A stretch of 64,000 nt of DNA from Eledone cirrhosa (GCA_964016885.1 OZ024746.1:58218001-58282000), one strand, 5' to 3'; positions 12,746 to 41,820 are shown, counted from the stretch's first letter. Translations and numbers: made by a program. Notes: generated by a model from the sequence alone, not told the origin.

Positions 12746-12808
<63 letters not shown>
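12746..12808. repeat. (AAT)21 tract, tail/target of T1
   Basis: Seen directly; abuts the T1 3' end. Confidence 0.95.
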
Positions 12809-12810
<2 letters not shown>

Positions 12811-13072
12811 TTTCTTTATTAACCACAAGGGTTTACATAAAGTAGACATTAAGGACAGTGCAGAACAATGGAGGACGGTACAAATGGGCATTTCTGCGTG
12901 TAAAAAAAAAAAAAAACAGAGGATGTAACAAAAATAACAATGAAAATAACAATGAAAAATTCCCCAATAGGGGGGAGACTTCGGAGGGACATTTGTGGAG
13001 AAAGCCCAGTGAAAAGCCACAATGACCCTGACCACCAAGGCAAGTGCCCTCTCCCAGTTTTCCACCTTTAGT

Positions 13073-16000
13073 TTACAGATATATACTCAGAGTCGGCCCA
13101 TTCACTCGGGCCATTCTTGCTTCTCTCACCCATCTTTCAACAAAATGCTGGGAAGAGAGCACTTCCCTCTCTACTCTGATTTTCCTTTTCAAATGAAATT
13201 TGAAAAAGTCAATCAGAGCATCACCGAAGAGGTAAGTGCTCGTCTTCAGCCCTTTCAAACGTGTCCACCATACTATCTCTTTCGCCATGGCCACCAGACA
13301 GATAAAAACTGCCTGCCCTTCCCGGCTAAAGGAGGAGGGCGGGGCAATCCTCACGATGGCCTCAGATGATAGCTGGATCCGTCCTAAACGCGACAGCAGG
13401 TGTTCGACATAAACCCACAAGTCAGCAATTTTCGGACACTGGACGAGTGCGTGCAGGACGGTTTCGTCGCCCTGCGCGCATCTCGGACATGCCCGACTGA
13501 CGGCACCTCCATGCCTGTAGAGTTTATCCCGAACTGGCAAGGCTCCTCGGTAGCACTGCCAGGCCAGAGATTTCTGGAAGTTGTCCATAGGCCCTGGCCC
13601 GAAAGTTCTTCCGAAGAGATTGGCTAGTTGATTTTCGTCGACGCCTAGAGTTTCCCCAAGTACGTCGTCGCTCTTCCCCTCCACTAATCCTCTATAGAAC
13701 GCCGAGGTGGAGTTTCCACCGATCACATTGCCCGATTGGTCGAGGGCTGTGAGCGCCTGAAGACATTCCAGTCTCCAGGCGCTCCCTCTCGGTCTTCGCT
13801 TGACCCAGGACTGCAGCTCCGTCAAGGAAACGAGCTGGGGAAAAACGCGTCTAGCAAACGGCGACCACACGTGATCACCGTCGAGGAAGAGGTGGAGATG
13901 TCGTAGCCTGAGCGCGTGCCTGCGCATCATCAGCCACGGCATGCCCAGCCCCCCACGTAGCGGGTGTTGACAACAGATGGACCGCCTGACCATCGGAGCG
14001 CGTCCCTTCCACAAAAAGCGAAAGAGCAAACGCTCCAGCGCAGTCAGGCGAGGCTTAGGACAAGGTACGACGGTCAGGCGGTAGCAGATGACGGACGCGA
14101 TGTACGCGTTAGCCACCTCCGCTCGACCTTTCAGGGATAGCTTCCTCTCGGCCCATTTCTGGGTGAGAGAAGCCACCCTGCTCGTCACCTCGTCCCAGTT
14201 TTTGTCCGTCTGGAGGTCCGGACCGAACCAGACCCCTAGCAATTTAACCGGTCCGTCCGTCCAGCGTCCGACGACGCTGTTGGACGGCATGGACCTGCCT
14301 CTCCAGGTGCCGAGCTGCAGGCCCACTGACTTTTCCTGGTTGATCATTGCTCCTGTCACCGCTTCGTATTCTCTTAGTGTAGTGCCGATCGCCTCGATGT
14401 GTTTGGCGTTCGACACCACTACGGTGACATCGTCCGCATATGCTGACACGGATCTTCCGCATCCTAGTTCGCGCGGGACTCCCCTCAACGTCTCCAGTTT
14501 GTGCAGTAATGGCTCGAGAGTCAATACGTACAAGAGGGACGAGAGGGGACATCCTTGGCGGACCGAGCGCATGATGTTGAACGGTTCCGACAGGTGACCG
14601 TTCACTCTCACCACAGAGCAGATGTCGCTGTGCATGGCAGCGATCCAGCCTCTGAAGACGGGCCCAAAGCCAGCCGCCCTCAGGACTGCCGCTAGGTAAC
14701 GATGGTCGACCCTATCGAAAGCTTTCGACTGATCTAAATTGATCAAGGACCCACCCGTGCCAGGTTCCCTAGCTACCCTCTCTACGATGTATCGCATGAG
14801 GTGGAGGTTGTCGTGGATGGATCTGTCGGGAATGGCGCATGTCTGCGCCTCTCCCACCAGACCACCAACGACAAGCGCCAACCTCTTTGCTAGCACCTTG
14901 GCCAAAATCTTAAACTCTGTGTTTAGCAGAGTTATGGGCCGGAAATTGTCTATGTTATCCCCCTTGTTCGGATCCTTTCTCAGCAGTGCCACCGCTCCTC
15001 GGCTCACAGAACTGGGAATTCTCCCGTTCTGTTGCCAGTTGCAGTAGACGTCCGCCAAGAGGCCTCCGAACAAGTCTGGCATCTGTACGTAAAGTTCATA
15101 GGGCAGACCATCCAAACCAGGCGATTTACCCCTTGTGCAGCCAGTCATTGCCTCCCGTACTTCAGCGGCTGTTATCGGCTTTTCGCAACACCTCGCCTCA
15201 GTGGCCGAGAGCCGCGGCAGTCCGTCGAGGTAGACACTAAAGTCCATCCCTCTACCCGGCCCCCCGCTGCCCCCGAACAGCTGAGCGAAGTGTCGCTGAA
15301 AAGCTTCACACATTTGCCCGGGATCGAGTAGCATGCGCCCGTCGTGGTCCACCAAAGACCGGATCGTGGCATTGTTGCCACGACGCGCCTCCGCCACTCG
15401 GGCCCATTGAACGGCTTTCGTCCCCTCGTGTCTGAGAGCACGCACCCTAGCTCTGACAACGCAGCCTTCGTGCTTTGCATTGAAGAATTGGTCAAGGGCC
15501 AATTTCGCCGCAAGCACGTCGGTCGCAATGCCTTTGCTAAGCGCCTCGTCTAATTTTCTCACTAGTTCTCCCTCTGCTCTATTTTTCTCTATTGCTAAAG
15601 CCTTACTAAACCTAATCGATTCTATTCTAATCGCTCTTTTCAGAGCAAACCACCACTTGTTGTTGACGATGGCCCCCGTCAACGCCCGCTTAACTAGTTC
15701 GCTAATCCGGTCTCTGTAGGCCTTGCGCGCTGGTAAGGAGGCGTTTAGCTTCCAGTAGCCGGGTCCTCGTCTATGAAGCCTATCTAAGTCAAGCACACAG
15801 GTCACGAATTTGTGGTCCGTGTAGCTGACTATCTTGAATTGTGGACAGCCTATGCTAGACCTATCTATTTCCCTACAAAATACTCTATCTAGATATGATC
15901 TGGATGACCCTATGCGGTTTGTCCAAGTCCACATTGGCACATTCGGGAAATCCAATCGGTACCTGTCAGACAGTTCAAAACGCCTGAGCAGGTTGGTGAG

Positions 16001-16492
16001 GCTCTTGCACCCTCCACCCCTATCCGCTAATCCCACACAGTCCCAGCGTGCATCTAAGATCCCGTTCCAGTCGCCCACTAACACTAAAGAGCGGGACGTT
16101 CCAAGAAAGGTCTCCAGACGCCGGAAGAAATCAGGCCGCCCTGCTCCTGTCGGGACATAGACGGCCACTAGCCTGAAAGCTTGCCCGTCTCCGCTGGTCA
16201 CGTCCAGCACCACCAGCTTACCCTCTGGGTCCAGGAAGATGGCCCGTATGGCGAGATCCAAACCTCTCCGAAAAAGCACAGCAACTCCTCCACCCGATCC
16301 AGGACGGCTGGGAGATGCGTACACATCGTAGCCGCCGAAGATCGGTGCGAAGGCCCGTGCTTCGGAGATTCTGGTCTCGCTGATGGCCACTACATCTATG
16401 TTTAGTGACCTGAGGTCGTTGAGCAGGTGACCCTGCTTCCATGACGACCCCAAGCCACGCGCATTTATGCTGCCTATTCTGAGTGAGGTCAT
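13073..16492 (-). CDS. T1 ORF2: AP endonuclease, reverse transcriptase and C-terminal Cys-rich region (1139 aa)
   Basis: APE motifs SINARG, SET, GDWN, SYLDR, TDH; RT motifs KSPGLDG, FRPITLLN, DQSKAFDRVDH, RQGCPLS, YADD; C-terminal CPRC..ETVLHALVQC. Confidence 0.96.
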   Translation of the reverse strand: MTSLRIGSINARGLGSSWKQGHLLNDLRSLNIDVVAISETRISEARAFAPIFGGYDVYASPSRPGSGGGVAVLFRRGLDLAIRAIFLDPEGKLVVLDVTSGDGQAFRLVAVYVPTGAGRPDFFRRLETFLGTSRSLVLVGDWNGILDARWDCVGLADRGGGCKSLTNLLRRFELSDRYRLDFPNVPMWTWTNRIGSSRSYLDRVFCREIDRSSIGCPQFKIVSYTDHKFVTCVLDLDRLHRRGPGYWKLNASLPARKAYRDRISELVKRALTGAIVNNKWWFALKRAIRIESIRFSKALAIEKNRAEGELVRKLDEALSKGIATDVLAAKLALDQFFNAKHEGCVVRARVRALRHEGTKAVQWARVAEARRGNNATIRSLVDHDGRMLLDPGQMCEAFQRHFAQLFGGSGGPGRGMDFSVYLDGLPRLSATEARCCEKPITAAEVREAMTGCTRGKSPGLDGLPYELYVQMPDLFGGLLADVYCNWQQNGRIPSSVSRGAVALLRKDPNKGDNIDNFRPITLLNTEFKILAKVLAKRLALVVGGLVGEAQTCAIPDRSIHDNLHLMRYIVERVAREPGTGGSLINLDQSKAFDRVDHRYLAAVLRAAGFGPVFRGWIAAMHSDICSVVRVNGHLSEPFNIMRSVRQGCPLSSLLYVLTLEPLLHKLETLRGVPRELGCGRSVSAYADDVTVVVSNAKHIEAIGTTLREYEAVTGAMINQEKSVGLQLGTWRGRSMPSNSVVGRWTDGPVKLLGVWFGPDLQTDKNWDEVTSRVASLTQKWAERKLSLKGRAEVANAYIASVICYRLTVVPCPKPRLTALERLLFRFLWKGRAPMVRRSICCQHPLRGGLGMPWLMMRRHALRLRHLHLFLDGDHVWSPFARRVFPQLVSLTELQSWVKRRPRGSAWRLECLQALTALDQSGNVIGGNSTSAFYRGLVEGKSDDVLGETLGVDENQLANLFGRTFGPGPMDNFQKSLAWQCYRGALPVRDKLYRHGGAVSRACPRCAQGDETVLHALVQCPKIADLWVYVEHLLSRLGRIQLSSEAIVRIAPPSSFSREGQAVFICLVAMAKEIVWWTRLKGLKTSTYLFGDALIDFFKFHLKRKIRVEREVLSSQHFVERWVREARMARVNGPTLSIYL

Positions 16493-16527
16493 GTTTAAAA
16501 TAGAGTGGAAAAGATGGGAAAGACCAC

Positions 16528-18621
16528 TTACCGTACTTTTGGTAGAGGAGGGATGGTTTTTACATCCCTTTTCACTTGATCGTCTGGTGAAGGGACCGTT
16601 GAATCGTCCCTTCGGCTGGTCGTTGGCTCTTCTAAGAGAATGTCTGAGTATACTCTTCGATTGATGGTTCCTCCTAGGTCCCTGAAATCACCAACTGCGT
16701 TGGGGAATTTCGTTTTAATATTTGTGTATTGTTTCTGTGCTATTTTTAGCAGTCTTATGTTAGTTGGCGTTTTGATTGGTGCTGGTATTATGTAGTCCTG
16801 TTGTGAAATGTCTGTGTGTTCAATTATGTAAGTCATTAGTTTCTTGTTGTGTGTATTTATTGCCGTGCATTTGTTTTTCTGGGGGTGGGGTGTGGTTCTG
16901 CTATTTTCTTGTCGTTGTTGCTGGGTGTGTGTGTTTTGTTGTTGTGTTTGCGATGTTGGTGCTTGTGGTGGTGGTGTTGAAGGTGTTGTTGGCGGTGGGG
17001 TTGTCGCCGGTGGTGATGGTGGTGCTGGTGTGGGTGGTGATGGTGTTGGTGGTGTTGCTGCTGTGGGTCTCTTTGCAGTAGACTTTACCCTTTTCTCATT
17101 TCTTTCCTCCCTTTTCAAAGGCGACGATGCGCTGCTTCTGCGTTTGTGCCTTCTTGCGACCTTTTGCCATCCCTCTCCCACCTCACACTCCATGTCTGAT
17201 TCTGTAAGGTCGGGGAGGGGTACCAGCTCCACTCTTTCACTTGTTGTTGTTGGTGATGTTTGCACTGGAGTCTCTGTTGCAGCTGCATTTGGTATTGCTG
17301 TTGTTGTTGTTAATATTTCCACTGCTGCTGCTGTCTTTGATTTCCGTGGAGTGGGTATGGGTGCCACGGACCTATCGTTCCTGGTTGCCGCTTGTCCTGT
17401 TGCTGGTAGCCGTGGAGCCGGATTCGGAAGGAGGGGGGTTTTCTCCTTTCTCAGGGTCTTCTCGTTGCAGAAGGCCCTGAGGTGAGTCTTCGATCCACAG
17501 CGAAAGCATTTCGGGCGTTTGCCCTCAACACTTATGGGCAGTTGAGTGCCGTTATCGAAGTCTATCACATCCGGGATAGCTTCGATGCACTCATGGTTGG
17601 TTTGGATTAGCATCTCAATGGAGGAGCCGACCCAATCTTCTCTTACTTTTTTCTGTACTTGCAGTACAGTTGTTTTGTCCTCGATTCCGACGAGGACAGA
17701 CGCGGCCAGCCAAGAAGGGGTCATTCCGGGGGGGACGTGGGTCAGTTTGACCCTCACAATTTTTTGCCCGCAGTAGGAGGGCACCAACACCATTTCCTCG
17801 CTCCTTAGGGTCACTACTGATTGGGCCTTTGCCTCCTGGGGTGTGGCAAAAAGTACGTCTACGGTGGCGTATTTTTTGCCTCGGGTGATGTGCGTTTTCC
17901 TCTGCCACACAGACCCCAAGGCTTTTTGTATTTGGGCCTCTGTGGCTCTTTCCACCCTACGGGATTTTGTACTTACTGTACGGTACGTGACCGTACAGTG
18001 CTCTTGGGTTTCGAAAAAATTTTTCGCTGCCTTGCAGATTGCTCGGTGTCCGTTCTTTGTCACCATCTTCTTCGCTTCCTCTAATTCCTCATTTGTTATG
18101 AGGATTGTTTCCAAGTTTTTCGCAATACCTGCAAATGAGATTGGTTTTTCTCTGCTGTTGTTGTTGTCGTCAGAGCTGCTGGTACTTTTGTTGCTGCAGG
18201 TACTACGACTACTGCCTCCGCCGCTGTTGCTGTGGTTGTTGTTGGTGTTGCTGCTGCTAATGCTGTTGTTGTTTATGCTGCTGGTGATGCTGTTGCGGCT
18301 GCTACTGTTGTTTTCATTGTCACTGTTGCTGTTGTTATTACGGCTGCTACTGCTATTATTCCTGACGTCAGACGAATGAACTGGGTTTTCGTATTTCCCG
18401 CACACCTGTTTCGTCGCTGTCGTCGTCGTCGTGGAGAAACCTTGCACGCTTTGCACGAGACTTTTCTTTTCTTTCGTCACTTGCGAAAGAGAAGGGAGGG
18501 AGAGAGACACATTTAAAGAAGGGAGGGAGAGAGACAATCTTCTCTCTGCTGTAGTGATGATTGAGGAAGAAGAAGACGGAATGAGTGGGAGTGACGTATG
18601 AAATTTATTTTTGGTAGCCAT
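16528..18621 (-). CDS. T1 ORF1: nucleic-acid-binding protein with one CCHC zinc knuckle (697 aa)
   Basis: CFRCGSKTHLRAFC = CX2CX4HX4C; Asn/Ser- and Pro/Thr/Gln-rich linkers; homologous to ORF1 of the other copies. Confidence 0.9.
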   Translation of the reverse strand: MATKNKFHTSLPLIPSSSSSIITTAERRLSLSLPSLNVSLSLPSLSQVTKEKKSLVQSVQGFSTTTTTATKQVCGKYENPVHSSDVRNNSSSSRNNNSNSDNENNSSSRNSITSSINNNSISSSNTNNNHSNSGGGSSRSTCSNKSTSSSDDNNNSREKPISFAGIAKNLETILITNEELEEAKKMVTKNGHRAICKAAKNFFETQEHCTVTYRTVSTKSRRVERATEAQIQKALGSVWQRKTHITRGKKYATVDVLFATPQEAKAQSVVTLRSEEMVLVPSYCGQKIVRVKLTHVPPGMTPSWLAASVLVGIEDKTTVLQVQKKVREDWVGSSIEMLIQTNHECIEAIPDVIDFDNGTQLPISVEGKRPKCFRCGSKTHLRAFCNEKTLRKEKTPLLPNPAPRLPATGQAATRNDRSVAPIPTPRKSKTAAAVEILTTTTAIPNAAATETPVQTSPTTTSERVELVPLPDLTESDMECEVGEGWQKVARRHKRRSSASSPLKREERNEKRVKSTAKRPTAATPPTPSPPTPAPPSPPATTPPPTTPSTPPPQAPTSQTQQQNTHTQQQRQENSRTTPHPQKNKCTAINTHNKKLMTYIIEHTDISQQDYIIPAPIKTPTNIRLLKIAQKQYTNIKTKFPNAVGDFRDLGGTINRRVYSDILLEEPTTSRRDDSTVPSPDDQVKRDVKTIPPLPKVR

Positions 18622-18858
18622 GTTTTTTTGTTTAAAATGAAATTTTGGCTACAAAACCCCAATAACTGGTTATTTAACCCCGAAGGGCCAAATAACGGAC
18701 AGAAAGACCCCTCTCACGAGGAGGAGGGTGTCTTTATCAACAATTTGGTTCAAGTTTTAAACAATTTACAATTGTTTTAACGGTTAAAAATTACTATACC
18801 TTACAGAGCCGAGCCTCCGTCAACCATGGCATTCAATAATAATAATAATAATAATAAT

Positions 18859-21800
18859 GTTTTCTTTATTAACCACAAGGGTTTACATAACGCAGACATT
18901 AAGGACAGTACAGGACAATACAGGACGGTACAGATGGGCATTTCTGCGTGTAAAAAACAAAAACAGAGGATGTAACAAAAAATAACAATGACAAATTCCC
19001 CAATAGGGGGGAGACTTCGGAGGGACATTTGTGGAGAAAGCCCAGTAGAAGGCCACAGTGACCCTGACCACCAAGGCAAGTGCCCTCTCCCAGTTTTCCA
19101 CCTTTAATTTACAGATACATACTCAGAGTAGGCCCATTCACTCGGGCCATTCTTGCTTCTCTCACCCATCTTTCAACAAAATGCTGGGAAGAGAGCACTT
19201 CCCTCTCTACTCTTATTTTCCTTTTCAAATCAAATTTGAAAAAGTCAATCAAGGCATCACGAAGAGGTAAGTGCTCGTCTTCAGCCCTTTCAAACGTGTC
19301 CACCATACTATCTCTTTTGCCATGGCCACCAGACAGATAAAAACTGCCTGCCCTTGCCGGCTAAATGAAGAGAGTGGAGCAATCCTCACGATGGACTCAT
19401 ATGATAGCCGGATCCGTCCTACAGGCGACAACAGGTGTTCGACATAAACCCACAAGGTAGCAATTTTCGGACACTGGACGAGTGCGTGCAGGACGGTTTC
19501 GTCGCCCTGCGCGCATCTCGGACAAGCCCGGCTGACGGCACCTCCATGCCTGTAGAGTTTATCTCGAACTGGCGAGGCTCCTCGGTAGCACTGCCAGGCG
19601 AGAGATTTCTGGAAGTTGTCCATAGGCCCCGGCCCGAAAGTTCTTCCGAAGAGATTGGCTAGTTGATTTTCGTCGACGCCTAGAGTTTCCACAAGTACGT
19701 CGTCGCTATTCCCCTCCACTAATCCTCTATAGAACGCCGAGATGGAGTTTCCACCGATCACATTGCCCGATTGGCCAAGGGCTGTGAGCGCCTGAAGACA
19801 TTCCAGTCTCCAAGCGCTCCCTCTCGGTCTTCGCTTGACCCACGACTGCAGCTTCGTGAAGGAAACGAGTTGGGGAAATACGTGTCTAACAAACGTCGAC
19901 CACATCTGATCACCGTCGAGGAAGAGGTGGAGATGTCGTACCTGAGCCCGTGTCTGCGCATCATCAGCCACGGCATGCCCAGCCCTTTACGTAGCGGGTG
20001 TTGACAACAGATGGACCGCCTGACCATCGGAGCGCGTCCCTTCCAGAAAAAGCGAAAGAGCAAACGCTCCAGCGCAATCAGGCGGGGCTTAGGACAAGGT
20101 ACGACGGTCAGGCGGTAGCAGATAACGGACGCGATGTACGCGTTAGCCACCTCCGCTCGACCTTTCAGGGATAGCTTCCTCTCGGCCTATTTCTGGGTGA
20201 GAGAAGCCACCCTGCTCGTCACCTCGTCCAAGTTTTTGTCCGTCTGGAGGCCCGGACCAAAACAGACCCCAAGCAATTTAACAGGCCCGTCCAGCGTCTG
20301 AAGATGCTGTTGGACGGCATGGACCTGCCTCTCCAGGTGCCGAGCTGCAGGCCCACTGACTTTTCCTGGTTGATCATTGCCCCTGTCACCGCTTCGTATT
20401 CTCTTAGTGTAGTGCCGATCGCCTCGATGTGTTTGGCGTTCGACACCACTACGGTGACATCGTGCGCATATGCTGACACGGATCTTCCGCATCCTAGTTC
20501 GCGCGGGACGCCCCTCAACGTCTCCAGTTTGTGCAGTAATGACTCGAGAGTCAATACGTACAAGATGGACGAGCGCAAGATGTTGAACGGTTCCGAAAGG
20601 TGACCGTTCACTCTCACTACAGAGCAGATGTCGCTGTGCATGCACAGCGATCCAGCCTCTGAAGACGGGCCCAAAGCCAGCCTCCCTCGGGACTGCCACT
20701 AGGTAACGATGGTCGACCCTATCGAAAGCTTTCGAGTGATCTAAATTGATCAAGGACCCACCCGTGCCAGGTTCCCTAGCTACCCTCTCTATACGATGTA
20801 TCGCATGAAGTGGAGGTTGTCGTGGATGGATCTCCCACCAGCCCACCAACGACAAACGCCAACCTCTTTGCTAGCACCTTGGCCAAAATCTTGAACTTAT
20901 GGGCCTGAAATTATCTATGATATCCCCGTTGTTCGGATCCTTTCTCAGCAGTGCCACCGCACCACGGCTCACAGAGCTGGGAATTCTCCCGTTGTGTTGC
21001 CAGTTGCTGTAAACGTCCGCCAAGAGGCCTCCGAACAAGTCTGGCATCTGTACGTAAAGTTCATAGGGCAGACCATCCAAAACAGGCGATTTACCCCTTG
21101 TGCAGCCAGTCATTGCCTCCCGTACTTCAGCGGCTGTTATCGGCTTTTCACAACACTCCGACTCAATGGCCGAGAGCGGCGGCAGTCCGTCGAGGTAGAC
21201 ACTAAAGTCCATCCCTCGATCATGCCCGCCGCTGCCCCCGAACAGTTGAGCGAAGTGTCGCTGAAAAGCTTCACACATTTGCCCGGGATCGAGTAGCATG
21301 CGCCCGTCGTGGTCCACCAAAGACCGGTTCGTGGCTTTGTTGCCACGTAGCGCCTCCGCCACTCGGGCCCATTGAACGGCTTTCGTCCCCTCGTGTCTGA
21401 GAGCACGCACCCTAGCTCTGACCACGCAGCCTTCGTGCTTTGCATTGAAGAATTGTTCAAGGTCCAATTTCGCCGGAAGTACGTCGGTCGCGATGCCTTT
21501 GCTAAGCGCCTCGTCTCATTTTCTAACTAGTTCTCCCCCTGCTCTATTTTTGTCTATAGCTAAAGCCTTACTAAACCTAATGGACTCTATTCTAATCGCT
21601 CTTTTCAGAACAAACCACCACTTGTTGTTGACGATGGCCTCCGACAACGCCCGCTTAACTAGTTCGCTAATCCGGTCTCTGTAGGCCTTACGCGCTGGTA
21701 AGCACGCGTTTAGCTTCCATTAGCCGGGTCCTCGTGTATGAAGACTATCTAAGTCAAGCACACAGATCACGAATTTGTGGTCGGGCAGCTGACTATCTTG

Positions 21801-24663
21801 AATTGTGGACAGCCTATGCTAGACCTATCTATTTCCCTACAAAATACTCTATCTAGATATGATCTGGATGACCCTATGCGATTTTCCAAGTCCACATTGG
21901 CAAATTCGGGAAATCCAATCGGTACATGTCAGACAGTTCAAAACGCCTGAGCAGACTGGTGAGGCTCTTGCACCCTCCTCCCTTATCCGCTAATCTCTAC
22001 ACAGTCCCAGCGTGCATCTTACATCCCGTTCCAGTCGCCCACTAACACTAAAGAGCGGGTCGTTCCAAGAAAGGTCTCCAGACGCCGGAAGAAATCAGGC
22101 CGCCCTGCTCCTCTCGGGGCATAGACGGCCACTAACCTGAAAGATTGCCCGTCTCCGCTGGTCACGTCCAGCACCACCAACTTACCTTCTGGGTCCAGGA
22201 AGATGGCCCGTATGGCAAGATCCAAACCTCTCCGAAAAAGCACAGCAACTCCTCCCCCCCCCGATCCCGGACGGCTGGGAGATGCGTACACATCGTAGCC
22301 GCCGAAGATCGGTGCGAAAGCCTGTGCTTCGGAGATTCTGGTCTCGCTGATGGCCACTACATCTATGTTTAGTGACCTGAGGTCGTTGAGCAGGTGGCCC
22401 TGCTTCCATGGCGACCCCAAGCCACGCGCATTTATGCTGCCTATTCTGAGTGAGGTCATGTTGAAAAGGAGTGGAAACGATGGGAAAGACCACTTACCTT
22501 ACTTCTCGTAGGGGAAGGACGGCTATTCCATCCTTTTCACTGCTTGTGGCCTCCTCAGGAAGGATATCCTTATAAATCCTCCTGGAGAGTGCTTGTCGGA
22601 AGTCTCTGATGTCTTTGGGGAATTTTTATTTTAGTGTAATGTACGTTTTCTGTGTGATGCGAGTGATTTGTATGTGTGGAGGTGGTGTGAATTTTGGGGT
22701 TGTTGTGTAGTCTTTTTCTGTGATGCTGGTGTTGTGTTGGATGTAGTGTAATAAATGCTTGTTGTCAAATTTAATGCTGTGTAGTGTGTATCGTTTTGGT
22801 TGTTTTGTTTTGTTTGCGTTTGTTGTAGGTTTGTTTCTGTTTCGCATTTTGGTGACATTTGTGTTGTAGGTGATGGTGGTGTTGGAGTTAATGATGGTGA
22901 TGGTGTTGGTGATGCTGGTGTGGATGGTGGCATATCTGTCCTAACTTTTTTGTTTCTTAGTTTATTTGTTTCCCTCTGTATTTTGTTTTTGGAGGGGGAA
23001 GGAAGAGAATTTTTTCTTTTTTGGCTTCTTTTTTTTTTTCCGGATATCGTTTCCCACTCCTCGACGTCACAATCTGTCTCCAGTTGTGATAGGCTGGGGA
23101 GTGGAAAATCCTCCACAGAGCGTTAGTTTTGGTTGTGGTGTGGTGGATGGTGTAGGCGCTGGTGCTAGTTGTGAAGCGTTGGGTGGTGGTGGTGTTCGTT
23201 TTGCTACTGTTGCTGGGGTTGTTGCTGTTATAGTTGCTTTTGTTGTTGCTGCTACAGTTGTTGCTGCCATCTCTGCTACTGGTGGTGTTGATGGTTGTGT
23301 CACTGGGGTGGGTAGGAGAGGTGGCCTCAACCTTTTAGCCTGAGGGCAGAAAGCCGTTAGGTGGGTTCCTTCACCACAAACGACACACCTAGGTCTTCTA
23401 CCCTCGACAATTACCGTGAGGTGGCTGCCGTCAGTGAGGTCTATTACCTCTGGGATCTCCTCAATGCTTTTTTGGTCCGCTTGGATCAGGAGCTCCATCC
23501 CAGATCCGGACCAGTTTTCCTGCTTTTCTTTTGCTATTGCTATTATTTTCGTGTTGGCTTCGATGCCGGCGAGGACAGCCGTTATTAGCCAGGGAATTTC
23601 GATGGGCGGTGGAACGTGGGTCACCCTGATCTTTACGAGTCTCTGGCCACAATAGCTTGGGACGAGTGTGAAGTCGTCACTTTTTAATGGGGCCATGGAG
23701 TGTTCTCTAGCCTCCTCTGGTGTTTCAAAGAACACACACACGGTTCCATACTTTTGCCCACGTCTGATGTGGGTGTTTCTTGCCCACACATGTCCCAAAG
23801 CTTTTTGGATTTGGGACTCGGATGCCCGTTCCACTCGGCGCGATTTTACATTTATTGTTCTATACGACACGGTGCATAGGCGCCGATGCTCCATTTAATT
23901 AGGTGGTGGGGGGGGGGGGGGTGAGGATGACCCTGTACCCATCTTTCTTTACCATTTGTTTGGCATTTTCTAAATCTTCCTGAGTTACCGTGAAAGCTTC
24001 GAAATGTTTTGCTACTCTGGCGAAACTGAGGGGGGTTTTTATAATGTTATTGTTGTTGTTGTTGTTGTTGCTATCGTTATTTGTGTTAATATTAATTTTA
24101 GTTTCAGTTGTGATGGTGGTGACGTCAGTCGTCTTTGGTGCGGAAGAGTCCATTTTGCTTGATTTCATTTCGACATCACGAGTTAATTAATTTTTTTCTT
24201 CTTTTGTTTCTGTTGTCGCGGTGGTGGTGGGGGTGGTGGTTGTCGCGGTGGTGGTGGTGGTGGAGGCTTTAACACCTGCAGTCATTGGTAATGGCGGGAA
24301 ATGAATGTCTGCCTGAGACAAATTTAAAATATTGCTACTGCTTATATTTTTTTTTGTGTTGGCAAACGTAGTAACATTTACAATGGTGGTGTCGGTGTGA
24401 GGTGTTATTTTCTGAGGAAGGCTTTCAGCTGCTTCGTGCAGAGGAAAATTAGCCATTTTTTTCAAATAAATTTTTGGATAATAATAAAAGTTAAAATTTT
24501 GGGCACAAGGCCCCAATCTTTTTGGGTGTCCTTTTCGGAAAACAATGTATGTGTGCTTATAAACAGTTAACAATAAAATTTTCCATAAATGGCAATTGTT
24601 AACAAACGGAAATAACAATCCTTTGCGGAGCTCACGATGATACGATTTACTACGTAGGTCGCC
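18859..24663 (-). mobile_element. Full-length degenerate Tx1 copy T2 (ORF1 type B)
   Basis: ORF1 ~22494-24456 and ORF2 19109-22459 broken by stops, frameshifts and small deletions; (AAT)8 at 18835-18858 and (AAT)18 at 24664-24717. Confidence 0.93.
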
Positions 24664-24718
<55 letters not shown>

Positions 24719-24959
24719 TTTTCTTTATTAACCACAAGGGTTCACATAAAGTAGACATTAAGGACAGTACAGGACAATACAGGACGGTACAAATGGGCAT
24801 TTCTGCGTGTAAAAAAACAGAGGTTGAAATAAAATAACAAAGAAAAATCCCCAATAGGGGGGATACTTCCAAGGGACATTTGTGGAGAAAGCCCATTAAA
24901 AGACCACAGTGGCCCTGACCACCAGGGCAAGTGCCCTCTCCCAGTTTTCCACCTTTAAT

Positions 24960-30374: not shown

Positions 30375-30581
30375 TTTTTTCAAATAAATTTTTGGATAAT
30401 AATAAAAGTTAAAATTTTGGGCACAAGGCCCCAATCTTTTTGGGTGTCCTTTTCGGAAAACAATGTATGTGTGCTTATAAACAGTTAACAATAAAATTTT
30501 CCATAAATGGCAATTTTTAACAAACGGAAATAACAAACCTTTGCGGAGCTCACGATGATACGATTTACTACGTAGGTCGCC

Positions 30582-30654
<73 letters not shown>

Positions 30655-30807
30655 GATAAGGGAAGAAGACGCACGAGGTGACGGAGGTCATGAAATCGCT
30701 CCCGTAAGTTTTGAATTTTTAACATATTTAAACCATTTGTGAAATAACAACTCTTAGCACAAATGCTACGTAAAGCACCCGGCTTGAGCCCCAAAAAATT
30801 CGGACCC

Positions 30808-32084
30808 AAAATATATTGTTATAAGGCTCAAATATTCAAATATTCAACTTTGTATTGTACACTGTATATCCAAAAAAAATGGCTATAAATGGAAGAAGAA
30901 CCCCTCCTCTCCTCTGGCTACACTATATAGGTCAGCTAAACTCACCAACACCAGAAACTAGATACACCACCCACCCCATCATATGTGTACACTAAACACA
31001 ACAGCCAGATAACGACACATTTTCACCTTCACCGCCACCGCTCACTACGGCCATCATTACCACCACTATCCCATCACCGCCGCCACCACCCCTTGACTCC
31101 GCTACAGCACCATCACTACAGTAATACGGTCACATCACGGCCACCACTGCCTCGGTATCGACATCACCACCACCACTGTCTCAGTATCGCTAACGCCGCC
31201 AGTCTCCCACTTCCCTGCTGGCTGCTACTCCCACATTATAGAATTCCTACTACTAACAAAGAGGAAGGCATCAAAATATATAGATAGACCCAAAAGAAAA
31301 AAGAAAAAACAAACAACAAAACCAAAGCAGCACAGCAACAACAGCAAAAAACGAGAAAAACAAACAGAGAAAAACAAAAACAAAAAAAAGAAACCCAAAA
31401 AACGTAAAGAAAATATATTGTTATAAGGCTCAAAACGTAAAGGAAATATATTGTTATAAGGCTCAAAACGTAAAGAAAATATATTGTTATAAGGCTCAAA
31501 TATTCAAATATTCAACTTTGTATTGTACACTGTATATCCAAAAATAAAAAAATGGCTATAAATGGAAGAAGAACCCCTCCCCTCCTCTCCTCTGGCTACA
31601 CTATATAGGACAGCTAAACTCACCAACACCAGAAACTAGATACACCACCCACCCCATCATCTGTGTACACTAAACACAACAGCCAGATAACGACACATTT
31701 TCACCTTCACCGCCACCGCTCACTACGGCCATCATTACCACCACTATCCCAGCACCGCCGCCACCACCCCTTGACTCCGCTACAGCACCATCACTACAGT
31801 AATACGGTCACATCACCGCCACCACTGCCTCGGTATCGACATCACCACCACCACTGTCTCAGTATCGCTAACGCCGCCAGTCTCCCACTTCCCTGCTGGC
31901 TGCTACTTCCACATTATAGAATTCCTACTACTAACAAAGAGGAAGGCATCAAAATATATAGATAGACCCAAAAGAAAAAAGAAAAAACAAACAACAAAAC
32001 CAAAGCAGCACAGCAACAACAGCAAAAAACGAGAAAAACAAACAGAAAAACAAAAACAAAAAAAGAAACCCCAAAAACGTAAAG
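30808..32084. repeat. Tandem duplication of ~600 bp with two extra ~33-bp junction copies between units
   Basis: 30808-31409 matches 31476-32084 (ORFs 30985 and 31663 nearly identical); AAATATATTGTTATAAGGCTCAAAACGTAAAG repeated at 31410-31475. Confidence 0.92.
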
Positions 32085-32392
32085 AAAATAAGAATGAAGA
32101 GAGAAGCAGGCGGACGGACAGAGAAGAGGGGGGAAAAAGTAAAACTTAAAAAACTAAAACTAAGTCAGACATTCGAACACTACATTACAATGAAACTTAT
32201 GCTTATTCATTTCTGGGGCCCTTTCTGCCTGTGTGTTTGTTTGTTTATGTGTGTTCGTATACAGCGTGGTGATAATGCCACACAAGGGCCAAGTGGGATG
32301 GCGGATCCACAGATGGCTATGTAAACATACATTCGCCAATCCTCGATAAGAGTGTTTAAATATCGAACATAAACAGTTCGAATAACGGTGAA

Positions 32393-35300
32393 ATGGAGAC
32401 TAGAACGTCATGTGACAGACTCTCACCCAACAGGTGCCCCCTGACTCAGCAGCAGGAACCTGACTGTCAACCAAATACTGCTGATGTTGGAGGAAGGAGA
32501 AGAAGGAAAGGGGCCAGAACCAACTGGACGAAAGAATTGAATAGAACTGTTATGCAATGCTACCTGAAAAGTAACCCCAAGGAGAGGGGCTACAGGAGAC
32601 GGATGCATAACATCTGGAACGAGATTGGTTTATTTAAATTAGATGAACAAAAATTGGCCGGGCAGGCTCGGGTAATAAGAACTAATGGGTGGATAAGCGA
32701 GCTGGAACTGGAGGAACTGAGCAGAGAGAATGGCTTGGAGATGGCGGGTGTAGTATGCCAGACAAGCGAGCCGGTGGGAAATGAAGGTGAGGAGGTCCTG
32801 AGAACGGAGGAACCACACGAAGCAGACAATGATCTGAGTACTGAGATAAATAATACCTGGAACAGAGATACGGCCACTGAGGAGATGAATGCTGACGGGC
32901 TAGGACAAGATTCGGTTGACATCCTAAATTTAGTGGTAGATGAATTGAACAATGATAGTGGGAGATCTATGAACCTAAGATTTGTAGACAGGAAAAAGTT
33001 AAAAGAAACAACAGCTAAGGTAAACAAAGTCATCCCATACCTTGAGGCGAGGAGCCTTCACCAGTGCAACAATATCGTCAGAGCAACAGCAAATACGGTG
33101 AGGAAACTACTTGGTATAAAAGCGAGAGGAAACAACAGACAAGAAAGAGCAGAGCCGTGGTGGAAGAAGCGACTGAGTGGGCAAATCGGGGAAATGAGAA
33201 ATGACATAGGAAAGCTTGAGTCACTACTGAATGGGACACTAAAAAACATAGGCACTAAAAATAGACTGGAAATAAAATACAAAACTAGGAGTAAAAAGCT
33301 AAATATTATCATAGAGGAATTGAAGCAACGCATTGTAGCAAAGAGTGCAAAAATCAGGCGATACGAGAACAGAGTCAGTCAGTATAAACAGAACCGCATG
33401 TTCGACAACAACCAGAAGATGCTGTTTGGACAGCTTGAGGGCAAAGAAAGAGGCAACGACTTGATCCCTGGGGCGGAGCAAACTAAAACATTCTGGAGAG
33501 GAATATGGGAGCAGGATGTTAGACACAATGCCCAGGCAGGGTGGATTGAGACAGTACAGAGGGAGATCGGTGAGCAGGCACAGCAACAGACTGATTTGAG
33601 TATCACAGTTGAAACTCTTAAGGGACAAGCCAAAAAACTAACCAACTGGAAATCGCCAGGCCCAGATGGTGTGCAGGGGTATTGGATTAAACATCTAACA
33701 TCCCTCCACCCGAAGATGACGGCCATGTTCAATGACTGCTTGGTGTCGGGTGAGGTGCCAGAGTGGTTGACAAAAGGTACCACAGTTCTGATAATGAAAG
33801 ACCGAATCAAGGGTAATGATGCTACCAACTATAGACCTATCACATGTCTGCCCGTAATGTGGAAACTGTTGACGAGCATTGTGTCTGAGGAAATCTACCA
33901 TCACCTCCACACAAACAACTTGTTACCGGACGAACAGAAAGGATGCCGAAAGAAGTCACGTGGTACAAAGGACCAGTTGCTTATTGATAAGATGGTAATG
34001 GGGAATTGCAGGAGGAGACACACTGATCTTGCCATGGGATGGATAGACTACAGAAAGGCATTTGACATGGTGCCTCATTCCTGGATCACCAAAAGCCTGG
34101 AGATCTTCAGGGTGGCGGATAACATCAGACAGTTGCTAGGCAGGAGTATGGGGTCCTGGGAGACAGAGTTGACATCAACTGGAGTATCCTTGGGAAGCGT
34201 GAAGATCAAGAGAGGTATCTTCCAGGGAGATAGCCTGTCCCCTCTGTTGTTTGTCCTTGCCCTGATGCCCTTGACCATTATGCTGCGAAAAGTGAGAGCA
34301 GGATACAAGTTGGGAAGGGGAGAGCTTACCATCAATCACCTCCTCTTCATGGACGATCTTAAGCTCTTCGGGAAAAGTGAGAAGGAGTTGGATGTGCTTG
34401 TTGACACTGTCCGTATTTTCAGCAGTGATATATGTATGCAGTTTGGTATTGGTAAATTTGGAGTCATTGTGATGAAGGTTGAGCAGAAGTAACGGGATCC
34501 AGATACCAACAAGTGAGATGATAAAGGAAATTGACTCTGAGGAAGGATACAAGTATTTGGGCGTTCTGGAGGCTGATGGCATAAAGAACAAAAAAATGAA
34601 GGAATTGTTAAGAACTGAATACATTCGGAGAGTAAGGAGCGTATTGAAGTCACATCTGAACAGCAGAAATGCCATAAGCGCAGTAAATTCCCGAGCTGTG
34701 TCTATTATTAGGTACAGTGCGGGAATTCTGAGATGGAATGTTGCTGAACAGAAAGAAATGGATAGGAAGACTAGGAAGCTATTGACTATCTACAACATGT
34801 TCCACAAGAGGAGTGATGTCGATAGACTCTACCTAAGGAGATCTGAGGGTGGAAGAGGTCTTATCAGCATAGAGGACTGTGTTCAGATGGAGAAAAACAA
34901 CCTATACAAATACGTGACCTATAGTAAGGAGCCAATGCTCAGAGCTGTACTGAAGGAGGGGACAGTAGGCCAGGGGATGTCCAGGGAGGAAATAACATCA
35001 AGGAGGAAGAGCAGCCTTAAGGGAAAACCCCTTCATAGTACCTTCTTTGAGAAAACTGAATTTAGAGATCCACAGACATGGAACTGGTTGAGAAGAGGAG
35101 ACCTCAAAAAGGCTACAGAAGGAATGCTAATGGCTGCGCAGGAGCAGGCCCTCAAAACGAAGTGGTTGAAGCACCATATCTACAAGGAGGAGGCCAGCCC
35201 ACTGTGCAGGATCTGTGGAGAGAGAGAGGAGACTGTGGCTCACATTGTGTCCGAGTGTAAACACCTAGCCCAGACCCACTATAAGGGCTGGAGACACGAT

Positions 35301-35777
35301 GTGATGGGCAGGGTGATCCACTGGCACCTGTGCAAAGTAAACAATCTACCACATTCTGAGAAATGGTATGAGCATAGGCCAGAGGCGGTGATGGAGAACA
35401 ATCAGGTGAAGGTGCTGTGGGATTTTAGGATACAGACGGACAAAAAACTGGAACACAATAGACCTGACCTGGTGGTTGTGGACAAAGAAAAAAGATCGTG
35501 CCTGATTGTGGATGTGGCCTGCCCGTTCGACACGAGAGTGCAAGAGAAGGAGAGGGAGAAAATTAACCGATACCAGGACCTAAAGTGGGAGGTGAAAAGG
35601 ATTTGGAACTGCCATGAAGTCAAAGTGATCCCGATTGTCATAGGCGCACTGGGGACTATCTCCAAAAGTTTCCAGGGATGGTTAAAGAAAATCGGCCCCT
35701 TCACGCTTTTTGGAACGCTTCAAAAGGCATGCTTGCTTGGAACAGCAAGAACCCTCCGATACGTCCTGAATATCTGA
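32393..35777 (+). pseudogene. D1 ORF: N-terminal domain, RT, CCHC finger and restriction-like endonuclease; one frameshift at ~34480
   Basis: RTNWTKELN..MQCY N-terminus, WKSPGPDG, YRPITCL, GIFQGDSLSPLLF, FMDD; CRICGEREETVAHIVSEC, RHD, RPDLVVVD...DVACP...K..Y. Confidence 0.92.
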
Positions 35778-35884
35778 GGCTGCAGGTAGTGGCTTGATAT
35801 TCAATCCAACGGACTTTCCAGTTAACCAACATCAATGACTGAGATTCAAGGAATAACAATAACAATAATAATAATAATAATAAT

Positions 35885-38800
35885 GATTTCTTTAGTGGCC
35901 ACAAGGGCCGACATCAAGAAATACATTACAGACGTGCACAGGACGCTACAGGACGGTACAATGTGGGTTTTGCGCGTGTAAATATTTTTATTATTTATAT
36001 AAGAAAAGAAAAAAAAATAGACATAGAAACATATATATATAAACAATAAAAATGAAAATTGAAACAATGAAAAATTCCCCAATAGGGGGGAAACCTCCGA
36101 GGGTTACTCGTGGCGAAAACCTCACAAAAGACCACGGCCACTCTGACCACCAGTGCAAGCGCCCTCTCTCAATGTTTCCATTTCTCAAACTACAGACGTA
36201 TATTCAGAGTGGTCTCTTTCACTCGGACCATTCTCGCTACATTCACCCACCTTTCAACAAACTTGCTAGAAGGCAGAACTTTCCTCTCCACCCTGATTTT
36301 CCTCTTCAAGTGGAACTTGAAAAAGTTAATTAGGGATTTGCCGAAGAGGAAAGTGTCTGTCCTTAACACTTTTAACCTTGTCCAACACACAATATATTTC
36401 GTCATGGCCACCAGGCAGATGAAAACCGCCTGCGCTTCTTCCTCGAAGGAAGACGGCGAGACCATCTGCACAATGGACTCAGTCGACAACCGGATGAGTC
36501 CTACACGCGACAGTAACTGTTAGACATAACTCCACAAGTCAGCAATGCTCGGGCACTGAACGAGTGCGTGCACGGCGGTTTCGTCGCTATGCGAGCATCT
36601 CGCACAGGCTCGGCTGACGGCACTTCCGTGCCTGTAGAGCTTATCTCGAACCGGCAGCGCTCCCCGGTAGCACTGCCAGGCCAGAGATGTTTTATTTTTC
36701 TCCGGAAGAGAGCAAGCAGCTGATCCTCTTCGACGCCCAGGATCTCTCCGAGAATATCGTCGCTCTTCTCCTCCACTAGTCCTCTATAGAACGCCAAGGT
36801 GGATGTTCCACCGACACTGGTGCCCAGCTGGCAGAGGGCAGTGAGCGCCTGGAGACATTCCAGTTTCCAAGCGCTAAACCTCGGCCTTTTTCTGACCCAG
36901 GACTGCAGCTCCGTCAAGGAGACGAGCTGTGGGAAAACGTGCCTGGCGAACGGTGACCATCAAGGAAGCACCAGAGATGTCGCAGCCTCAGCGCATGTTT
37001 GCACATCATCAGCCATGGCATGCCCAGTCCTCCACGCAACGGGTGTTGACAGCAGATAGATCGTCTGATCATGGGAACGCATCCCTTTCACAAAAAGCGG
37101 AAAAGGAGGCACTCCATTTTGGTGAGAGTTGGGCTGGAGCAAGGGACGACGGTGAGGTGGTAGCAGATGACGGATGCGATGTACGGATTGCGCCACCTCC
37201 GCCCGGCTTTTCAGGGACAGCTTCCTCTCGGCCCATTTCTGGGTGAGGGAGACCACCCTGCTCGTCACCTCGTTCCAGTTTTTCTCCATCTGGAGGTCCG
37301 GTCCGAACCAGACCCCGAGCAATTTAACCGATCCGTCCGTCCAACACCCCACGACGCTGTCGGACGGCATGGACTTGCCTATCCAGGTGCCGAGCTGCAA
37401 GCCCACCGACTTTTCCTGGTTTATCTTACTTCTGTCACCGCTTCGTATTCCTTGAGAGCGGTGCCGAGCATCTGGACGTGTCTGGTGTTCGACACCACCA
37501 CGGTGACGTCATCAGCGTAAGCCGACTCGGATTTCCAGCATCCTAGTTCGCGCGGGTAGTCCCTCAACGTCACCAGTTTGTGCAGTAACGGCTCGAGAGC
37601 CAAACGTACAAGAGGGACGAGAGGGGACAACCCTGGCGGACTGAGCGCATGATGCTGAACCGCTGCGACAGGTGACAGTTCAGCCTCACAACTGAGCAGA
37701 TGTCGAAGTAAATTGCTGCGATCCAACCCCTGAAAACGGGCTCAAAACCGGCTGCCTCGAGGACCGCCGCCAGGTACCGATGGTCGACCCTATCGAATGC
37801 TTTGGATTGATCCAAGTTGATCCAGGCCCCACCCGTGCCAGGTTCTTTAACCACCCTCTCTATGATGTATCGCATGAGGTAGATGTTGTCGTGTATGGAA
37901 CTGTCCGGAATGGCACATGTCTGCGCCTCTCCCACCAGACCCTTTACGACAAGCGCCAACCTCGTTGCTAACACCTTGGTCAAAATCTTGAACTATGAGT
38001 TCAGAAGGGTTATGGGCCTGAAATTATCGATAACATCCCCCCTGTTCGGGTCTTTTCTTAGCAGCGCCACTGCTCCCCGGCTCACAAAACTGGGAATGCT
38101 CCCGTTCTACTACCAGTTGCAATAGACGTCTGCCAAGAGGTCACCGAACAAGTCTGGCATAAATGCATAAATCTCGTAGGGCAGACCATCCAGACCTGGC
38201 GACTTACTCCTTGTGAAGTTAGCCATCGCTTTCCGTATTTCACCGGCTGTTATTGGCTTTTCGCAACACTGTGCTGCGGTCGTGGAGAGCCGAGGCAGTC
38301 CGTCGAGGTATGCACTGAAGTCCATGCCCCGATCCGGGCCGCCGTCGCTACCGAACAGTTCAGCAAAGTGCTGCTGAAAAGCTTCACACATCCGCTCGGG
38401 TTCGAGCATCACGCACCCGTTTTGGTCAGACAAAGACCGAATTGTGGCTTTGTTGCCACGTTGCGCCTCTGCCACCCGGGCCCATCGACGGCTTTTGTCC
38501 CCTCGTGTTTCAGAGCACGCGCTCTAGCTCTGACAACGCAGCCGTCGTGTTTTGCGTTGAAGAATTGGTCGAGTGCCAATCTCGCCGCAAGCACGTCTGT
38601 TGCGATGCCTGTCCTAAACGCCTCTTCTAGATTTCTGACTAGCTCTCCCTCTACTCTATTTTCCTCTATCACTACTCCTTTGCTAAACCTAATCGACTCT
38701 ACTTTAATTGCCCTTTTCAGGGTGAACCACCACCTGTTTTTGACGACCGCTCCCGTCAACGCCCGCTTAACTAATACGCTAATCCGGTCTCTGTAGTCTT

Positions 38801-41800
38801 TGCGCGCCGGGAAAGACGCGTTCAGCTTAGTAACAAGGCCCTTGTCTATGAAGTCTGTCTATGTCGATCTCACAGATCACAAATTTGTGGTCTGTGTAGT
38901 CGACTATTTTAAATTGTGGACAACTTATACTAGCCTTATCTAATTCTCTGCAGAATACTCTATCGAGATACGATCTGGATGATCCGATGTGATTTGTCCA
39001 CATTGGCACATTCGGGTGATCCAGTCGATACCTGTCAGACAGTTCAAAACGTCTGAACATGTTGGTGAGGCTCTTGCACCCTCCTCCCCTATACACTAGC
39101 CCCACACAATCCCAGCGTGCATCCAAGATACCGTTCCAGTCGCCCACTAACACCAAAGAGCGGGACGTTCCAAGAAAGGTCTCTAGACGTCTGAAGAAAT
39201 CTGGCCGTCCTGCCTCTGATGGGGCGTAGACGGCTACTAGCCTGAAAGCATTGCCTTCGCTGCCGGTCACGTCCAGCACCACCGACTTACCTTCTGGGTC
39301 TGGGAATATGGCCCGTATCGAGAGATCCAAGCCTCTCCGAAAAAGGACGGCAACGCCTCCCCCCCCCCCCGATCCTGGACGGGTGGGAGACATCGTATAC
39401 AACGTAGCCGCCGAAGATCGGTGCGAAGGCTTGTGCTTCGGAGATTCTGGTTTTACTGATTGCCACCACATCTATGTTTAGTGACCTGAGGTCGTTGAGC
39501 AGGTGACCCTGCTTCCAAGATGACCCCAGACCACGTGCATTTATACTGCCTATTCTGAGTACGGCCCTATTGGATGAGAAACGGGGCAAGTGAGAAAAGG
39601 TCAATTACCTTGATCGTGTGGTGAAGGGACAGTAGAACCGTCCCTTTCGCTGGTCATGGGTGTTTCCAAGAGGATGTCAGTGTATAGCCTCTTGGCAACC
39701 GACCCCCTGAAGTCTCCAACTGCGTTGAGGAATTTTGGTTTAAAGATTTGTACTGTTCTATTGAGATTTCGATGATGCTTATGTATGTCGAGAGAGTTCT
39801 TGGTGCTGGTGAGGTGTAGTAGTTTTTTTCTCTGATGTATGTGTGCTGTTTTATATATTGTATGAGTTCTTTTTTTGCCATGTTTATGGTTGTGTACATT
39901 TTGGGGGGAGGGGTGATTTTGTTGCCGTTTTCTTCTTGTTGCTGTTTGGTGTGTGTGTCTTGTTGTGTTTGCGTTGTTGGTGATTTTGGTGATGCTGGTG
40001 GTGGTGTGGTTGTTGTTGTCAATGGTGCTTGTGGTGATGATGGTGGTGGTCTTGCTGCAAGTTTCCTTGCTGCCTTTACCCCTCTTTGTATGCCTTCGCT
40101 TTTGGAGGGTGAATCTAAGGTTTTTTTTCTTTTTTCTTTTTTTTTTGTGGCAGACCGTTTGCCACTTCACTCCTGCTTCAAACTCCATATCGGATTTGTG
40201 GCGTCTGGGAGGGGTATGTGCTCCACGGCTGTTGGTGGTGGTAGTGGAGCCCTCTTCGGCAATTTTGTTGCTGGTGTAGCTACTTCAAATGTAGCTATTG
40301 GTGTTGCCGCCACTGATGTGGCTGCTTTAGTTGTCCGTGGCCTTGGTACGGGTGCTACGGACGTTGCCCTCCTACTCACCGTGGAAGGGACTTCTTCGTT
40401 TGTTGCCTGCCATGCTCTTGGTAGCAGCGGACCAGGTATTGGAAGGAGAGAGGCCTTCTTCGCTGTCTTCTGCGGGCAAAAGGCCCTGAGGTGACCCTTC
40501 GATCCACAGAGATAACATTTTCGCCGTCTTCCTTCTACACTTATACGGAGTTGGAGTCCTTCCTCGATGTCTATGATATTGGGAATAGCGTCGATACATT
40601 CCTGGTCAGTTTGTATAAGCATTTGCATGCCTATACCTGACCAGTTCTCTATCCCTATTTTTTCTACTTGCAGCATGGTCGTCCTTTTCTCGATTCCAGC
40701 AAGGACAGACGCGGCCAGCCAAGGTATGGGCACGTCGGGTGGGTCCTGGGTCACTTTGACCCTCACAATTTTCTGCCCGCAGTAGGAGGGCACCAAGAAT
40801 ATCTTCTCACTCTTTAGGGTTTCCAAAGAGTGAAACTTTGCTTCCTGGCGGGTGGCGAAAAGTACGTCTACTGTGGCGTACTTTCTGCTTTGGGTGATGT
40901 GGGTTTTGCGTGCCCAAACGCACCCCAAGGCCTTTTGGATTTGAGCCTCCGTGGCTCTCTCCACCCGATGTGAGATTTTGCTTACGGTGCGGTATGTCAC
41001 CGTCCGTAGCTGCTGGTCCTTGAAAAAATCGAGTGGAGGTTTGAGGGAGACTCTATTGGCGCTTCTTGTCACCATGGCCCTTGCGACTGCCATCTCCTCC
41101 TCTGTGACTAACACTGTCTCGATATTTCGGGCGACACCTGCAAAATAAATGGTCCCTTTTTCAGCAGCACCAGTATTGCTGCCACTACTGGTCTTACTGG
41201 TGGTACTGAGATCGCTATTACAGGTATCGGTGTCATTGTTGTTGTTTTCGTTGGTACAGTTGTTGGTGTTCTTGTTGTTGTTTTCGTTGATACTGTTGCT
41301 GTTGTTACTGTTATTGTGTGTTGTTATTATTGTTGTTTTTGTTGATACTGTTCTTACTATTAATGTTGTTGTGGCTGTTGTTATAGTCATTGTTATTGTC
41401 GTTCTCAACCTTACCGCTTTATTTTTGTTATTGTCGTTCTCGACTTTACCGCTGTTATTTTTGTTGTTGCTGTTGTTATTGATGGTGTTGTTGTTGGTGT
41501 TGTTGGTGTTATTGTTGGTGTTGTTTGTGTTAGAAATATTTGTTAATTTTAAATCTGTAACAATCGTTTTTTCCTTTGTAATATTTTCGTTTATATTTAC
41601 CTCCGCTGGAACGCTGTCTTGTTGACATGCTGATAAAGTCTCCCTCTCTCTGTGTTGTCTGACAGCGCTCTCTCTCTGTTTCTTGTGATATCCATGTTGA
41701 AATTTTTTCAATAATAATATTCTTTTATTATTAGCCAAACACATTGAGAAAATATTATGACAGCACATGACCACAGAGGGCAGGAAAAATCGGTAAGATG

Positions 41801-41820
41801 TTGTTTTTTTGTGTTAAGGA
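35885..41820 (-). mobile_element. Older degenerate Tx1 copy T4 (ORF1 type C, related to type A)
   Basis: ORF2 fragments 36190-39604 colinear with T1; ORF1 fragments 39601-41695 with CYLCGSKGHLRAFC; 3' end CCTTGTGGCCACTAAAGAAATC(ATT)n; 5' boundary approximate. Confidence 0.9.

Follow-up and report, generated by a model that had tools for sequence, protein, structure and literature searches.

A train of LINE retrotransposons from two clades, about 29 kb long, occupies positions 12746 to ~41820 of the 64,000-nucleotide stretch of DNA analyzed here (the window). Its members were likely gathered, with a probability of about 0.75, by repeated target-primed insertion into one (AAT)n tract that was shared by both clades. 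The order of the train is (AAT)21-T1-(AAT)8-T2-(AAT)18-T3-(AAT)24-D1-(AAT/AAC)11-T4, in which the T members are L1-group, Tx1-like LINEs and D1 is an R4/Dong-like LINE. The five internal junctions consist of AAT repeats alone, with zero other DNA, and each pure AAT run of the train is made up of complete AAT units. The leftmost run, (AAT)21 (12746-12808), is the tail of T1 or the left remnant of the target. (AAT)8 (18835-18858) joins the 5' end of T1 to the 3' end of T2, and (AAT)18 (24664-24717) joins the 5' end of T2 to the 3' end of T3. (AAT)24 (30582-30653) has the 5' ends of T3 and D1 on either side and no tail facing it, and 11 AAT/AAC triplets (35852-35884) lie between the tails of D1 and T4. 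The right edge carries only ~4 degenerate ATC/ATT units and no intact AAT run. An AAT-joined train of 29 kb had been described in a first-pass annotation, and its runs, coordinates, and five clean junctions were confirmed.

T1 to T4 are minus-strand copies with ATT-repeat tails, and the Dong-like copies, D1 and D0, are plus-strand copies whose tails are AAT repeats. The T3/D1 and T0/D0 pairs are therefore head-to-head and the D1/T4 pair is tail-to-tail. Because D1 is on the strand opposite to the T copies, the train is not purely head-to-tail. The same annotation had reported a smaller SINE-T0-D0 train, which is present at ~1752-6332 and consists of a SINE copy (1752-1931, minus strand) adjoining the T0 tail, (AAT)3, T0, (AAT)8 (5661-5684) lying between the T0 and D0 5' ends, D0, and an AAT/AAC run. 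The SINE itself is not microsatellite specific. Eleven (AAT)≥4 runs occur in the window, of which eight touch LINE ends, two are SINE tails, and one is free, and AAT runs make up 342 of the 25,362 non-element bases (1.35%).

T1 (12809-18834, minus strand) has both reading frames open. Its 5' untranslated region (UTR) of ~210 nt is followed by ORF1, with an ATG near 18622 and a CCHC knuckle, and by an ORF2 of 1,139 amino acids (13073-16492) with APE-RT-zf organization (Pfam Exo_endo_phos, 6e-14; RVT_1, 1e-28; zf-RVT, 7e-8). A separate ORF1 with a CCHC zinc knuckle is a feature of the L1 group/Tx1 clade. A pattern search recovered the CX2CX4HX4C knuckle in ORF1 of T1, T3, and T4 and returned nothing in that of T5; the Pfam zf-CCHC model gave a weak match in T4 only. 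Among solved structures, human LINE-1 ORF2p was the best match to T1 ORF2 (E value, 6e-52; residues 5-854), and R2 proteins matched at 1e-21 or weaker. L1 itself has a poly(A) tail and a weak target preference, whereas T elements end in ATT repeats and carry a CCHC ORF1. By their predicted RT, T0 to T6 are assigned to the L1 group, being nearer to L1-group than to R2-group proteins. The T elements are called Tx1-like here; their tree contained only unnamed relatives and no named Tx1, Keno, Kibi, or Koshi protein, and homologue searches with T returned no named Tx1 proteins. The nearest named matches were from Octopus sinensis (64% identity across 5% of the query) and Argonauta hians (58% across 45%), so the host is probably an octopod cephalopod.

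The remaining T copies are in various states of decay. T2 (18859-24663, minus strand) is full length and broken, its ORF2 having 4 private stops and 12 indels relative to T1. T3 (24718-30581, minus strand) is also full length, with 3 stops and no indels in ORF2, and its 5' start is the same as in T2 and T0. T4 (35885-~41820, minus strand) is a diverged copy, 76 to 81% identical to T1 to T3 at the nucleotide level, its ORF2 differing from that of T1 by 5 stops and 10 indels. The 5' end of T4 lies at ~41820 or at ~41871, beside a TA run; the latter would give a 5' UTR of a length like that of other T copies. The T4 5' region has no significant likeness to the other leaders. A high-copy repeat seems to start near 41893, to the right of T4. 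T0 (~1940-5660, minus strand) is an internally deleted copy of the T2/T3 family with an intact 5' start; both ends are kept, and two large ORF2 deletions leave a 249-nt island that is 96 to 97% like T1/T3. T6 (53326-53760, plus strand) is an isolated, 5'-truncated T-like copy of 435 bp.

The ORF2 region of T1 is 93 to 95% identical in nucleotides to those of T2 and T3. The core of its ORF1 shares 43% of amino acids with T4 and 29 to 30% with T2, T3, and T0. The segment 16531-18834 of T1 thus places a T4-like ORF1 and a 5' UTR of its own on a T2/T3-type ORF2, as though 5' modules had been swapped between subfamilies. Folding of the 5'-terminal 120 nt of T0, T1, T3, T5, and D1 was no better than that of shuffled sequences (z, 0.65 to 1.64).

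D1 (30654-35851, plus strand) contains one ORF (32393-35777) with a single frameshift near 34480. The layout of Dong/R4 elements is a single ORF with an RT followed by CCHC, RHD, and PD..D restriction-like endonuclease (RLE) motifs and no APE. The predicted C-terminal motifs of D1 after the RT are CCHC, RHD, and a PD..D restriction-like nuclease, and no APE match to D1 was found with Pfam. Full-length homologues of 1,110 to 1,160 amino acids run through the frameshift point, and no named Dong protein was among the 120 listed of 316 homologues. As judged by motifs, D1 has the R4/Dong layout. D0 (5685-6308, plus strand) is a 5'-truncated Dong-like copy with 86% nucleotide identity to D1, and AAT is found on both flanks of both D copies (2/2).

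The D1 5' leader (30654-32090, plus strand) resembles the leaders of the T family. Its first 232 nt are collinear with the T1 and T3 5' UTRs up to the ORF1 ATG context, with an alignment score of 66, compared with at most 60 in shuffles for T1 and a shuffle P value of 0.001 for T3. Control alignments with flank sequence did not exceed 51, and T1 aligned to T3 with a score of 52. An internal duplication in the leader (30808-31415 and 31476-32090) is 97% identical; a degenerate T/P-rich stretch follows the collinear part, and three 33-bp repeats lie at the duplication join. The leader is either a T-type leader on a Dong subfamily or a separate 5' stub, and capture of a 5' module by a Dong-like element is possible. 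No Rfam ribozyme matched D1 up to an E value of 5, and a ribozyme descriptor, itself not calibrated on a known ribozyme, gave 0 sense matches in the leader. All Rfam matches across the window were below the gathering score and are simple-repeat noise.

The arrangement of the 5' junctions supports the view that ATT next to T elements is more than a tail, on the basis of six copies in one window. Of the six T copies with ATT tails, five (T0, T1, T2, T3, and T6) carry 8 to 24 ATT units at their 5' junction, contrary to the opposing reading, raised at the outset, that ATT is only a tail. The exception is T4, whose 5' flank lacks an intact ATT run. The 5' runs of T1 and T2 may be a neighbor's tail, but their exact abutment still calls for a reason. 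The runs of T0, T3, and T6 are opposite no neighbor's tail: those of T0 and T3 face D 5' ends, and (ATT)10 (53296-53325) lies at the truncation point of T6. At a coverage of 1.35%, the chance of such a run in all three is ~2.5e-6, a crude figure in that the events are not independent. The proposal of an (ATT)n-specific Tx1 group is supported in part: 5' ATT extends beyond tails in T0, T3, and T6, but half of the proposed mechanism belongs to an RLE-type, Dong-like clade.

T5 (46521-51552, plus strand) represents a paralogous family with 65 to 70% nucleotide identity in ORF2 and has (CTAT)n, not (ATT)n, as the repeat at each flank (span, 46463-51590). It groups with T1 to T4 (SH-aLRT, 100) in a quick version of the tree, from which T0, T6, L052, and L054 were omitted as too short. 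This suggests, from one T5 copy, that the microsatellite target has switched within the T lineage. The long branch of T2 in the same tree was rejected as real divergence, being probably a frameshift artifact.

The SINE is ~190 bp long, with an ATTATT tail and target site duplications (TSDs) of 14 to 20 bp, and has 15 BLAST matches in the window (e.g., 44913-45099, 53761-53950, and 54564-54750); two copies directly adjoin T tails (T0 and T6). None of the 13 copies with a 3' end (of the 15 matches) has (ATT)≥4 at its 5' side, which excludes the SINE as a microsatellite-specific member of the trains. If T proteins mobilize this SINE, the T nuclease would need only a short ATTA site. In an improbable alternative to the main reading, the T family favors nothing more than a short ATTA-like site and supplies ATT as its tail, trains arise since tails are the richest local targets, and long 5' runs come from the tails of earlier elements, slippage, and Dong targeting. 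The 3' ends of the SINE are like those of T (shuffle P values of 0 to 0.04 for five T copies and ~0.75 for D copies), its TSDs begin with ATTAT or ATTAA in five of the six found, its sites are mostly not microsatellites, and the degenerate 5' flank of T4 would also fit. However, T6, although isolated and truncated, still begins at (ATT)10, no T tail lies upstream of the (ATT)8 of T0, T5 is bounded by its own tetranucleotide on both sides, and the LINE partner of the SINE is presumed. The available portions of PMC3747384 and PMC6007223 contain nothing that settles the SINE question.

A different kind of alternative concerns how copies at the locus are related. The members are too different for the train to be one duplicated unit, but the T2/T3 part could reflect gene conversion, unequal crossing-over, or a local duplication instead of two insertions; this account is less favored and is compatible with repeated insertion as an added process. 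T2 and T3 are 98% identical over the 5' 2.5 kb (52 substitutions) and ~93.5% identical over the rest; the contrast is between 6 differing sites in the first 750 nt and ~6.5% in the 3' 3.4 kb. They also start at the same 5' position and have identical letters at the 3' junction, and simple independent insertion followed by decay does not predict the contrast between their 5' and downstream similarity. Against duplication, the private ORF2 changes of T3 are biased toward synonymous sites, and T1, T4, D1, and the small train would be left unexplained. Private codon changes (synonymous/nonsynonymous/stop) number 28/11/0 in T1, 27/38/3 in T3, and 24/61/4 in T2, an excess over the neutral synonymous share of 0.24 for T1 (P = 4e-10) and T3 (P = 0.003) and none for T2 (P = 0.30). 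Such an excess is expected if T1 and T3 passed through separate active lineages. T1 is a separate insertion, since it is intact, has a different ORF1, and has synonymously biased changes. The private changes of T2 are rich in transversions and indels, so its age may be inflated by sequence error. Judged from the alignments, the T2/T3 pair has been touched by gene conversion, unequal exchange, or consensus error, which makes the relative age of the two soft. The copies fit insertion at different times, with T4 old and T1 and D1 the youngest.

Mis-assembly, in which contigs from different loci were joined through AAT runs, is highly improbable. All junctions are simple repeats, T2 has error-like changes, and no contig or read crossed any train junction among the records listed, in which rows at repeats were skipped. 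On the other hand, the window has no N bases, the AAT runs of the train are only 24 to 72 bp long, the members are distinct in sequence, and the same architecture recurs in the small train and in a joint among reads of a separate run. Depth and joints came from four sequencing runs mapped to 24400-42300. In a RAD run, 132 reads join T (at 27217) via an AAT run to D (at 35704), among the joints listed, with both partners apparently 5' truncated. This has the look of a further T-(AAT)n-D locus with truncated members and lends modest support, as the joint ends beside an SphI site of the library and the reads may all derive from a single molecule. The large piles of loose ends in the RAD data at 27376 and 35560 were rejected as flank evidence, since they lie at AATT sites and are probably library cut sites. 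Along T3 and D1, summed contig depth declines toward the 5' end, the pattern of dispersed LINE families.

Under the favored explanation of repeated target-primed insertion, each event would likely leave the new element between two AAT runs, into which the next element can insert, and the target would multiply in this way. The APE endonuclease of T elements would nick the AAT strand and the RLE of the Dong-like elements the ATT strand; nicks on opposite strands would account for the opposite orientations of T and D. Both nicks would probably fall at the T-A step, the exact bond being unreadable inside a repeat, and the AAT|AAT phase common to the T junctions and the D1 5' junction is compatible with such nicks. 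Because the 5' flank of T4 lacks an intact run, the seed may have been the tail of T4 itself rather than a long preexisting microsatellite, and the 5' halves of T2 and T3 were probably partly homogenized later. The T4 flank, the T2/T3 similarity pattern, and the SINE copies lacking 5' (ATT)≥4 (0/13) are evidence against this explanation. The proposal that one microsatellite became a landing pad for multiple families is retained for the joined families, but the T4 tail may be the seed and T2/T3 conversion or duplication may contribute.

Microsatellite targeting, tandem insertion, and the TAA specificity of Dong are already known (PMC3812793, PMC3774820). Dong elements, placed in the R4 lineage (PMC3774820), use TAA repeats as a target, including DongBg of the snail Biomphalaria glabrata (PMC3812793). 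Like Bombyx mori Dong, DongAg, and DongBg, D1 has RT and RLE-type motifs with AAT on both sides. The B. mori element has an HDV-like ribozyme that self-cleaves at the 5' end after TAA repeats (PMC3774820), whereas none was found in D1, whose leader resembles a T-family 5' UTR instead. Among mollusks, R4-Dong elements have been reported nearly exclusively from cephalopods (PMC10294476), which fits an octopod host. In Octopus vulgaris, Dong-R4 was recently active, with 5 families and 1,129 insertions (PMC13282606, table 1), as was L1-Tx1. That paper and PMC8967140, on octopus/coleoid repeats, list both LINE groups as abundant or active, and their accessible parts describe targets for neither.

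Kibi, targeting (TC)n, and Koshi, targeting (TTC)n, are microsatellite-targeting Tx1 families (PMC3812793), and crocodilian Tx1 families target TTCC/TTTC (PMC4494074), the criterion for a specific family in the latter study being the target repeat at >20% of flanks genome-wide. T elements are likewise APE-RT LINEs with two ORFs, and a microsatellite borders them at each end. What sets them apart is the target, (CTAT)n for T5 and (ATT)n for the others, the probable cephalopod host, and a repeat shared with an RLE element of opposite polarity. Tandem insertion in U2 genes is known for Utopia-1_NVit, and Keno and Utopia are APE and RLE elements that converge on U2 (PMC4640811). The trains resemble these systems in their tandem copies at a regenerated target and in the convergence of two nuclease types on one target. 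They differ in having a microsatellite as the target, one tract common to several families, and opposite orientations of the two clades. No ATT- or CTAT-targeting Tx1-like family, none sharing its repeat with Dong, and no mixed Tx1/Dong train was found in the literature searched, and Repbase, Dfam, the supplements of PMC4494074, and Kojima and Fujiwara 2004 may already hold such elements.

Relatives of the T family were found in other data sets. A sister family (41% amino acid identity) fills contigs of a GTDB genome labeled Arenicella (CAXXMW01; L081-L115 and L118), where it forms spacer-less, head-to-tail trains of 6.4- to 6.8-kb units, with some 5'-truncated units inside. All 36 distinct full ORF2 matches of this family lack stops, and its ORF2 copies differ by 0.03 to 6.8%. 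No microsatellite was seen at the train junctions viewed, and TA/GA microsatellites occur in the flanks. The CAXXMW01 contigs probably come from an animal and were mis-binned as bacterial, and their trains suggest that train-building may be a trait of the wider lineage. Another contig, L116, labeled a Metamycoplasmataceae MAG and probably a eukaryotic contaminant, carries a complete L1-like ORF2 surrounded by long microsatellites with di- and tetranucleotide units. AAT flanks were seen at none of 13 inspected of 80 metagenome loci plus one genome-contig locus; all are distant relatives, and their flanks are therefore uninformative on the T family. A viral contig collection held no relatives. 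Elsewhere in the window, palindromes at 8275-8627 and 56801-56918 (~92% self-complementary) are possibly MITE or foldback elements, and inverted repeats occur in flanking DNA at 53143-53222 and 42083-42166/42477-42560.

How such nucleases recognize microsatellites is not well understood (PMC3812793). If genome-wide counts agree, the T elements would provide a natural set of related APE endonucleases with ATT versus CTAT targets, including intact T1, and self-renewing targets would explain some cephalopod transposable element hotspots, with AAT tracts as their products. A broader and more speculative scenario, considered doubtful, is that a cephalopod L1/Tx1 lineage diversified in its targets (ATT in T0 to T4 and T6, CTAT in T5) from a train-building ancestor whose sister lineage makes long arrays without spacers in another animal, with AAT shared with Dong through nicks on opposite strands at one T-A step and, in an active Dong subfamily, a captured Tx1-type leader replacing the ribozyme. 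If that scenario is true, AAT microsatellites would be self-renewing, two-way landing pads on which unrelated LINE clades stack and 5' modules are swapped.
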